Source: Candidatus Rokuibacteriota bacterium
GTDB taxonomy: Bacteria; Methylomirabilota; Methylomirabilia; Rokubacteriales; CSP1-6
Assembly: GCA_050731755.1 (NCBI GenBank)
Contig: JBOHPP010000072.1
Location: 1-60,410 of the forward strand
Reading direction: 5' to 3'
DNA length: 60,410 nt
In this document: piece by piece, positions 41,058-41,612 of the stretch
Layout of the letters: every line of letters starts with the position of its first letter
How positions within the stretch are numbered: position 1 is the stretch's first letter
Made by a program: the position numbers and the translations under genes
Notes under the pieces: generated by a model
What the model was told of the DNA's origin: nothing
The model's database searches: none
Seen by the model: the letters and a program-made list of their open reading frames with translations, nothing else

Positions 41058-41365
41058 TTGCCGAGCACTCGCCGGAAGTACAGGCGCAGCGCCTCCTTGA
41101 GCTGGGCGCGGGCCCCAGCCGACGTCTTGGCGTCCTCGAGCTGCTCGAGATCGAGCTGCAGCGGCACGCCCTCGCGCTTGACGCCGTCCAGCTCGGCGGT
41201 GAGCCCGCACCGCTCGTCCGACTCGGTAAAGACGATCCGGGCGGTTTGGAACGTCCCGTCGTCGCGAGCGATCTGCTCCACGGTCTCCACCAGCACGCGC
41301 TTGAGCTCCTCCTGCTCGGCCCCGGGGACCGTGGAGAACGCCGCGGTCAGCCTAACGTCCGCCAT
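41054..41365 (-). CDS. hypothetical 103-aa protein
   Basis: Balanced acidic composition (MADVRLTAAFSTVPGAEQEELKRVLVETVEQIARDDG...) and translationally coupled on both sides. No family recognised. Confidence 0.55.
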   Translation of the reverse strand: MADVRLTAAFSTVPGAEQEELKRVLVETVEQIARDDGTFQTARIVFTESDERCGLTAELDGVKREGVPLQLDLEQLEDAKTSAGARAQLKEALRLYFRRVLGK

Positions 41366-41612
41366 CGGTCCAGACTTTCAAGATGTCGGCGTGGGTCTTG
41401 GCGGCGTTGGCCCGGATGGCGAAGCTGATCGCCTCCCGGACCTCGTCCTCGCTGGCTCCCGCTGCCCTGGCACCCGCCAGGTCGCGCTTCGCTCAGTGGG
41501 TGTTGCCGACGGCCAGGTTGGCGGCCAGATAGCAGAGCGCGGCCGTCTTGGGATCGAGCACGCCCTTCTTGTACGTCCAGCTGGCGATCACCTTCTCTTC
41601 GAGTGCCGGCAT
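41352..41612 (-). CDS. CMD/AhpD-like protein with an in-frame TGA (candidate selenoprotein, or a recent pseudogene)
   Basis: Not in the track. AAGGAG-N7-ATG(41612). MPALEEKVIASWTYKKGVLDPKTAALCYLAANLAVGNTH-TGA(41495-41493)-AKRDLAGARAAGASEDEVREAISFAIRANAAKTHADILKVWTDGGR-TAG. Both halves are collinear with the carboxymuconolactone decarboxylase/AhpD domain. Confidence 0.5.
41460..41486 (-). promoter_or_regulatory. SECIS-like hairpin downstream of the in-frame UGA
   Basis: CCUGGC-GGGU-GCCAGG (41481-41466) is extendable by a 4-bp lower stem with a bulged A and an A.G mismatch. It starts 6-11 nt after the UGA and has a G-rich apical loop. Confidence 0.45.

Follow-up and report, generated by a model that had tools for sequence, protein, structure and literature searches.

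Selenoproteins with the fold of AhpD and carboxymuconolactone decarboxylase (CMD) have reportedly been known since 2005, and the 'AhpD-like 1/2' selenoproteins are said to have been described by Zhang and Gladyshev (2005/2008). A further candidate for this class was identified in a 60410 bp stretch of a Candidatus Rokuibacteriota genome (GenBank assembly GCA_050731755.1, contig JBOHPP010000072.1; coordinates 1 to 60410), here called the window, where a small open reading frame (ORF) on the minus strand (coordinates 41352 to 41612) is interrupted by an in-frame TGA that the original prediction read as selenocysteine (Sec). The analyses described here strongly support that interpretation in its essentials. 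The gene is, with a probability of about 0.9, a functional selenoprotein gene in which the TGA is a genuine Sec codon, and it is a new, currently unannotated family inside the known class of AhpD/CMD-fold bacterial selenoproteins, with a standard decoding mechanism that would not surprise a specialist.

The four AhpD-type selenoprotein families covered in a 2026 review all carry the motif CxxU, where U is Sec (PMC13188914). The related methyltransferase/AhpD fusions ArsM_AhpD_UU (NF041537) and MduS (NF045649) also carry CxxU and have more than one Sec, two in MduS and three in ArsM/AhpD (Haft & Tolstoy 2025, as reported in PMC13188914). In AhpD itself, catalysis requires Glu118, Cys130, His132, Cys133 and His137, of which Cys130, Cys133 and His137 are the most essential (PMC3141380).

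In the window, a Shine-Dalgarno sequence, AAGGAG (41620 to 41625, minus strand), lies 7 nt before an ATG (41612 to 41610) that is followed by 39 codons, MPALEEKVIASWTYKKGVLDPKTAALCYLAANLAVGNTH, and then by the TGA (41495 to 41493) at residue 40. The same frame continues for a further 46 codons to a TAG (41354 to 41352), giving a CMD-fold protein of 86 codons plus stop (MPALEEKV...GNTH-U-AKRDLAGAR...TDGGR), and these positions, together with that of a hairpin at 41481 to 41466, were as originally predicted. The window has a G+C content of 70% and, as had also been stated, TGA is an ordinary stop elsewhere in it. It is the commonest stop, and 20 of 38 supported genes end with it, among them the one directly upstream of the ORF. 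Leaving aside simple gene junctions, no TGA in the window other than that at 41495 to 41493 is flanked by coding signal on both sides, and a scan of the window for other interrupted-frame TGAs returned two ordinary gene junctions and no second selenoprotein gene. When the TGA position was replaced by Cys for profile scoring, the conceptual protein scored 38.7 bits with Pfam CMD (PF02627), whose gathering score is 23, which bears out the domain assignment made by eye. The top NCBIfam matches were three AhpD-type selenoprotein models, NF041047, NF041537 and NF045649, all far under their cut-offs.

Family-alignment scans recovered the gene from 96 species-representative genomes, almost all of which are labelled Candidatus Rokuibacteriota or Methylomirabilota, as well as from over 354 contigs of metagenomes. 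Among the scorable loci and the copies of the window from these genomes and contigs, the DNA-level codon at the Sec column was TGA in 156 sequences and TGC in 3, one count with the window included giving 154 TGA and 3 TGC, and the downstream frame was intact in all scored loci. As synonymous divergence among the TGA-bearing sequences is approximately 0.4–0.5, the conservation of the TGA is far beyond chance. The ratio of non-synonymous to synonymous differences (pN/pS; Nei-Gojobori, 1500 random pairs) was 0.154 for codons 5–39 and 0.166 for codons 41–80. After the TGA, the frame contains neither ATG nor GTG, its sole TTG being codon 78, and a ribosome-binding site is likewise lacking. Equal constraint in both halves and the lack of a start codon after the TGA indicate that the second half is translated, and solely via read-through of the UGA, which removes explanations that invoke a pseudogene, a split gene or a sequencing error. 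The hairpin is likewise conserved in the orthologues, so that the comparison proposed with the original prediction came out in its favour on the codon, the frame and the hairpin.

Searches of a collection of 5.8 billion proteins recovered a few full-length relatives (81–86 amino acids (aa), 84–94% identity), which have C, W, G or R at the column, and more than 20 fragments, every one terminating at ...GN[TIV][HT], i.e. at the Sec column. None of the 37 protein matches in this collection contains Sec, and what it offers for the TGA form of the gene is limited to truncated fragments, wrong-code translations and mis-fused ORFs. When 1.84 billion representatives were searched exhaustively with a profile, a tight, isolated family emerged, consisting of one full-length cluster plus fragments, the next relatives scoring ~56 bits. 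These include an NxxC form (P0048, GNGYC), true Gly forms (the HEHG and NAPG groups) and classic CxxC forms; the existence of NxxC and other relatives lacking CxxC makes the absent first Cys a feature of this branch of the superfamily.

Cys homologues, for which a check had been recommended, do exist. They comprise P0001, P0002, P0003 and P0005 (GNTHC) and the more distant P0048, and the TGC codon was verified in the DNA of loci L001, L002 and L070. Apparent Trp forms were rejected as natural substitutions, as the DNA of P0007 has TGA translated under another code that reads the terminal TGA as W too, and the Trp forms P0006, P0008 and P0009 are presumed to be TGA under the wrong code in the same way. 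P0004 is a real GGA (Gly) singleton contig. The 'HEHG' and 'NAPG' relatives were considered as hidden selenoproteins and rejected, being real Gly sister families. One such sister family of small CMD proteins (L166, coordinates 2955 to 3209; P0049, P0051, P0052 and P0054) carries GHEH-G-AK, in which the Gly at the Sec/Cys column is genuine under code 11, so that these CMD relatives have no redox residue there; in L166 the gene is directly upstream of a gene for a thioredoxin-TPR protein.

Public gene calls at the selenoprotein locus were found to be systematically wrong (P0006–P0009, P0035, P0015 and P0030; L165, coordinates 852 to 1109; L171, coordinates 5313 to 5432). The miscalls are N-terminal fragments of 39–77 aa with spurious upstream extensions, proteins in which an alternative code has turned the TGA into Trp, and C-terminal halves joined in frame to unrelated upstream ORFs, one of these fusions being an NCBI entry. 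In addition, the contig of the Cys form P0003 (L001) carries a run of short adjacent ORFs (coordinates 2906 to 4251; 147, 122, 48 and 109 aa) that match GRDB and AhpC-TSA weakly and could be further selenoprotein genes split at TGA.

The published model for the bacterial Sec insertion sequence (bSECIS) has a loop of 3–9 nt that is flanked by an N1/N2 pair and has a G in its first two positions, an upper stem of 4–16 bp, a distance from UGA to loop of 16–37 nt and a minimum free energy (MFE) of -7.5 kcal/mol or lower (PMC13188914). The hairpin in the window, CCUGGC-GGGU-GCCAGG (41466 to 41481, minus strand), begins 11 nt after the UGA and has a 6-bp stem (CCUGGC/GCCAGG), a 4-nt loop of the form RGGY (41475 to 41472), a UGA-to-loop distance of 17 nt and an MFE of -11.7 kcal/mol, and therefore falls within the model on all four counts, as the predicted bacterial SECIS geometry had implied. 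It resembles the E. coli fdhF-type bSECIS, as represented by the consensus model that reportedly stems from Zhang and Gladyshev in 2005, in that a stem-loop right after the UGA has GG in its 4-nt loop and an N1/N2 pair flanking that loop, is spaced at 17 nt and has an MFE under -7.5 kcal/mol. It differs in lacking a conserved lower helix and a match to an Rfam SECIS, and in having a sequence specific to this gene family. The hairpin had initially been extended by a bulged lower stem (41486 to 41460), but an alignment fold of the orthologues recovered no conserved helix beneath the 6-bp stem, and only the upper stem and loop can be retained.

Codon usage was examined in 128 distinct sequences and stem pairing in 100. 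The six codons that make up the hairpin (D44, L45, A46, G47, A48 and R49) are near-frozen, with GAC, CTG and GCC each found in 128/128 sequences and AGG in 126/128, and apart from the AGG exceptions the only variation is GCA/GCG and GGT/GGC. The rare codons GCA, GGT and AGG are favoured here, whereas the same amino acids elsewhere in the gene freely use G/C-ending codons. Mean codon entropy is 0.27 bits in the hairpin versus 0.92 bits in the other codons for invariant residues (Mann-Whitney p=0.001), and codons 44–49 form the 6-codon window of lowest entropy in the gene. The six stem pairs are retained in 99–100 of the 100 sequences. In the same set of TGA forms the loop-flanking wobble positions covary (A-U in 72, G-C in 24, G-U in 4 and unpaired in none), with ~15–20 switches of this loop-closing pair by parsimony on a rough neighbour-joining tree. 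The values for pairing and covariation were not reached by any of 500 shuffles or by any slid register. Judged by these patterns, the hairpin is evidently under selection as RNA.

The variants without TGA all have a damaged hairpin. In L070 (TGC), the AGG codon has become CGC and the stem is broken (-6.6 kcal/mol), L001 and L002 (TGC) have an unpairable A.C at the loop-closing pair, and P0004 (GGA) has A.G there.

A profile alignment to the AhpD core structure PDB 2ouw (..NSCSYCAHSH..) placed N37 at the first Cys, H39 at the residue before the second Cys, the TGA column at the second Cys and D44 at the His. This agrees with the earlier hand alignment, which had put the TGA on the second Cys of CxxC, Asn at the first and Asp at the His. 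In a profile alignment to TTHA0727 from Thermus thermophilus (PDB 2cwq), the Sec column falls on the sole active-site Cys (GSEAC), and the motif SWTY is common to both proteins. An AlphaFold2 model of P0001, the 94%-identical Cys homologue, has a predicted local distance difference test score (pLDDT) of 84.4 and places the column residue at the N-terminus of helix 2. The top Foldseek neighbours of this model are all CMD/AhpD proteins (O27018, TTHA0727, RclX and the AhpD core), with a probability of 1.00 and a template modelling (TM) score of ~0.68.

The protein shares with M. tuberculosis AhpD the helix-turn-helix active-site motif and, of the five relay residues, only the equivalents of His132 and Cys133 (His39 and Sec40). 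Cys130 is replaced by Asn37, His137 by Asp44, and residue 25, at the Glu118 position, is variable in the family, so that the site reads N-T-H-U...D rather than C-x-x-C...H and three of the five proton-relay residues are absent. It is also a single CMD unit of 86 aa, compared with 177 aa in AhpD, and no ahpC gene is nearby, whereas AhpD is the adaptor of AhpC. An identity as canonical AhpD, defined by CxxC, a His four residues on and the relay Glu, was therefore rejected given Asn37, Sec40, Asp44 and the variable residue 25. Of the original reading as an AhpD-type selenoprotein, the CMD fold and the Sec at the redox column stand, but not the implied AhpD with a working CxxC/His relay. By alignment, the protein is best described as a CMD-fold selenoprotein related to single-Cys proteins of the TTHA0727 type.

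TTHA0727, a CMD-family hexamer of 137 residues, is the best sequence match among solved structures (E 1.2e-4, ~30% identity) and ranks third by structure (TM 0.68), O27018/3bey being first. Both proteins lack the first Cys (Ser70 in TTHA0727, Asn37 here), have a single Cys or Sec at the second position and share the N-terminal SWTY, and they differ in having Cys in one and Sec in the other. The pairing of GNTH-U with GSEA-C places the protein with TTHA0727-like single-Cys CMD proteins, which is a structural grouping and not a curated family. TTHA0727 is of unassigned function and thus gives no explanation of the role of the selenoprotein.

The known AhpD/CMD-like selenoproteins (NF041047, the GSU3128 family 'distant AhpD homolog'; TIGR01926; NF041238; PF02627) have the same fold and Pfam family and are similarly small and single-domain, the 84-position NF041047 profile aligning to residues 5–79. 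They also have Sec at the second CxxC position, an in-ORF bSECIS right after the UGA, and Cys homologues. However, all of the listed families have CxxU, in contrast to N-T-H-U without the first Cys, and the genetic partners found here, a 103-aa protein and a HemK2/MTQ2 methyltransferase, are unreported for them. Membership of NF041047 is not supported by the score (43.9 bits versus a cut-off of 110) or by the motif, which is NTHU and not CxxU, and the other curated models are also far below cut-off. The Sec domains of the fusions NF041537 and NF045649 are among the closest NCBIfam matches (E ~2e-10), and these fusions share with the present locus a genetic link between an AhpD-like selenoprotein and a class I S-adenosylmethionine (SAM) methyltransferase. 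Here the two are unfused and the methyltransferase is of the HemK2/MTQ2 type, a protein glutamine methyltransferase family, and not ArsM-type. The scores of 40.1 bits with each model (cut-offs 510 and 380) cover the AhpD domain only. A split version of the MduS or ArsM-AhpD fusion was also rejected, as the neighbouring methyltransferase scores above cut-off with TIGR00537 and only 18–20 bits on ArsM models.

Several observations weigh against Sec insertion or against a redox role for the product. In the 60-kb window and 1.5 Mb of related loci, which were covered in place of whole genomes, ARAGORN found no tRNA-Sec (tRNA-Arg and tRNA-Gln only) and tblastn with E. coli SelA, SelB and SelD found no selA, selB or selD. 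No second selenoprotein gene was found within 10 kb on either side in 77 genome loci, only this gene being recurrent. The Sec competence of this particular genome is thus assumed from literature at the level of the phylum, which leaves the main gap in the case. All six stem pairs are invariant, so that support for the hairpin comes from suppressed synonymous change rather than from compensatory change, with one covarying pair only. Rfam gave no match in the window at the gathering threshold, and a permissive scan of the hairpin region returned noise; such a miss is expected for lineage-specific bacterial SECIS elements. The three Cys-form loci have none of the neighbours of the selenoprotein gene, and the Cys forms are paralogues or xenologues, not positional orthologues. 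The case for a redox function is drawn from fold and column, and TTHA0727, with Ser70 for Cys130, was judged not to be a peroxidase (PMC3141380). Confidence in any particular biochemical function is accordingly low. For the phylum, a Methylomirabilota metagenome-assembled genome was predicted to have 63 selenoprotein genes (Deng et al. 2026, as cited in PMC13188914), and Sec-type group 4 [NiFeSe] hydrogenases have been reported from Methylomirabilota (PMC13582414).

The missing machinery also bears on the possibility that the hairpin stimulates decoding of the UGA by a near-cognate tRNA (Trp, Cys or Arg) independently of any SECIS function, and downstream hairpins can in general promote read-through. 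This is nevertheless improbable. The UGA coincides exactly with the redox Cys column, which holds Sec in every related selenoprotein family, the loop content and 17-nt spacing fit a bSECIS of the SelB type, and the phylum is documented as rich in selenoproteins. A sense codon such as TGG or TGC would be simpler, yet replaces the TGA in only 3 of 159 sequences. We infer that Sec, and not some other residue, is inserted. It is more improbable still that the locus comprises two small genes, the first coding for a conserved 39-aa peptide that stops at the TGA and the second for a C-terminal peptide with its own translation start. Gene callers do return an N-terminal fragment of 39–49 aa and sometimes a small downstream fragment, but the second part has neither a usable start (TTG at codon 78 only) nor a ribosome-binding site. 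In addition, the two halves form one contiguous CMD domain that Pfam and PDB profiles match across the junction and that folds as a unit, and full-length Cys homologues exist.

Decay and recoding can be given hardly any weight. A nonsense pseudogene, which the original prediction had kept as its alternative, or a sequencing or assembly error would account for the bare presence of a stop codon and nothing further. The same TGA occurs in 156 independent assemblies, all with the downstream frame intact, selective constraint after it equals that before it, and a relative 98.7% identical to the window encodes an identical selenoprotein, reducing the chance of decay or error to a negligible one. Reassignment of TGA across the genome (genetic code 4 or 25) might be read from the database entries that show Trp (P0006–P0009). 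However, these entries reflect, or are presumed to reflect, the wrong translation table, and TGA ends 20 of the 38 well-supported genes in the window, hence this explanation is scarcely credible either.

If the gene is decoded by the standard bacterial mechanism, the mRNA hairpin 11 nt downstream of the UGA would recruit SelB-GTP-Sec-tRNA(Sec), Sec would be inserted, and translation would run a further 46 codons to the TAG. As the TAG lies 14 nt inside the gene for the 103-aa protein, translation of that next gene is probably coupled. The predicted product is an 86-residue CMD/AhpD-fold protein in which Sec40 would lie at the N-terminus of helix 2, right after His39, in the column of the second CxxC Cys of AhpD (Cys133, M. 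tuberculosis) and of the Sec in all known AhpD-type selenoproteins. With the first Cys replaced by Asn, the relay His by Asp and the relay Glu not conserved, a single-selenol redox centre is proposed. The selenol would react with an oxidant or disulfide and may be recycled by an external thiol or by Cys27. This is the sole Cys of the protein (codon 41532 to 41534, minus strand) and a candidate resolving thiol, and a Cys codon is kept there in 128/128 distinct sequences (TGC in 109, TGT in 19). The protein would then be neither a CxxC dithiol nor an AhpC adaptor.

The genetic context of the selenoprotein gene was also examined. On the minus strand, the gene order is a Ski2-like DEAD/DSHCT helicase, a 165-aa predicted lipoprotein-like protein, the selenoprotein, the 103-aa ORF, the HemK2/MTQ2 methyltransferase, YdjC and a ROK kinase. 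The ATG of the 103-aa ORF (41054 to 41365) overlaps the 3' end of the selenoprotein gene by 14 nt, and its start is within -20 to +30 nt of the selenoprotein stop in 133/144 loci, with an overlap of exactly 14 nt in 91. The third gene (40362 to 41057) encodes a HemK2/MTQ2-family protein methyltransferase (TIGR00537, 96.7 bits against a cut-off of 87; Pfam MTS). Among 77 genome loci, the 103-aa ORF comes directly after the selenoprotein gene in 67 and the methyltransferase is present in 63, where it is ~400–500 nt downstream of the TGA and abuts or overlaps the 103-aa ORF. The selenoprotein gene thus heads a conserved three-gene operon that is restricted to Rokubacteria/Methylomirabilota. The 165-aa gene (41641 to 42138), which ends with an ordinary TGA 28 nt before the selenoprotein ATG, is near the selenoprotein gene in 66 of the 77 loci, at a variable distance and with other genes between, and is probably outside the operon unit.

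The 103-aa family has more than 2000 clusters, all annotated as 'hypothetical', and the protein gave no Pfam or NCBIfam match. Its AlphaFold2 model (pLDDT 88.3) matches only HPF/YfiA ribosome hibernation factors, and weakly (probability up to 0.99, TM 0.41–0.47, root-mean-square deviation 5–6 Å), a likeness in the model that may serve as a lead only. The HemK2/MTQ2 family methylates the GGQ glutamine of release factors. It is conceivable, though unlikely, that the three proteins form one functional module in which a single-selenol CMD protein acts on, or is regulated with, the translation-termination or ribosome machinery. Such a module might, for example, tune UGA termination versus Sec insertion, or maintain the redox state of a substrate or cofactor of the methyltransferase. 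If true, this would give AhpD-fold selenoproteins a new role and add a new kind of operon to those known for selenoproteins.

The 98.7–99.0% identical relative L171 (GCA_973789865.1, CCZKAT010000134.1) carries a ~4.4 kb insertion (coordinates 5572 to 9999) at the overlap between the selenoprotein and 103-aa genes, the insertion point corresponding to the window junction 41365 to 41354. The insert encodes Hypoth_Ymh (PF09509), an AAA_15/AAA_21 ATPase and a 62-aa ORF, and resembles a mobile or defence-type cassette that duplicated its target site. As the duplicated ATGGCGGACGTT flanks the insert, the selenoprotein and 103-aa genes are both intact, and the selenoprotein stop becomes TGA. A block of ~10 kb in the window (45299 to 55588) is absent from L171, and includes genes for trehalose-6-phosphate synthase and phosphatase (45981 to 49054), a 669-aa ORF (49997 to 52006) and the sugar-binding protein and permease of an ABC transporter (52543 to 55287). 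L171 has a type I restriction-modification system beyond an FAD-oxidase gene, where similarity to the window ends (window 35679). These block differences are strain-level island variation.

The rest of the window is ordinary chromosome, with genes for phosphate and nitrogen regulation, F420 biosynthesis, trehalose synthesis and sugar transport, and contains no selenium-specific gene. The F420 cluster (18491 to 25474, plus strand) includes two radical-SAM genes of the CofG/CofH type, CofD and CofE/F420 ligase, and adjoins genes for a luciferase-like monooxygenase and an HU-type DNA-binding protein. A class V aminotransferase gene (29084 to 30307, minus strand), assigned to the NifS/cysteine desulfurase/selenocysteine lyase superfamily by a generic Pfam match, is the sole gene in the window that is conceivably linked to selenium or sulfur trafficking.

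While knowledge of Sec decoding is unchanged by this gene, it is present phylum-wide in soil and groundwater Rokubacteria and is missed or split by current annotation. Gene callers routinely miss this class of selenoproteins, and adding the gene to annotation would correct the Rokubacteria selenoproteome. It extends AhpD/CMD-type selenoproteins from a uniform CxxU to a single-Sec NxxU, which raises the question of how the selenol is recycled. As a clean, lineage-specific SECIS, the hairpin could also seed a search for more selenoproteins in a phylum reported to have the largest bacterial selenoproteome.

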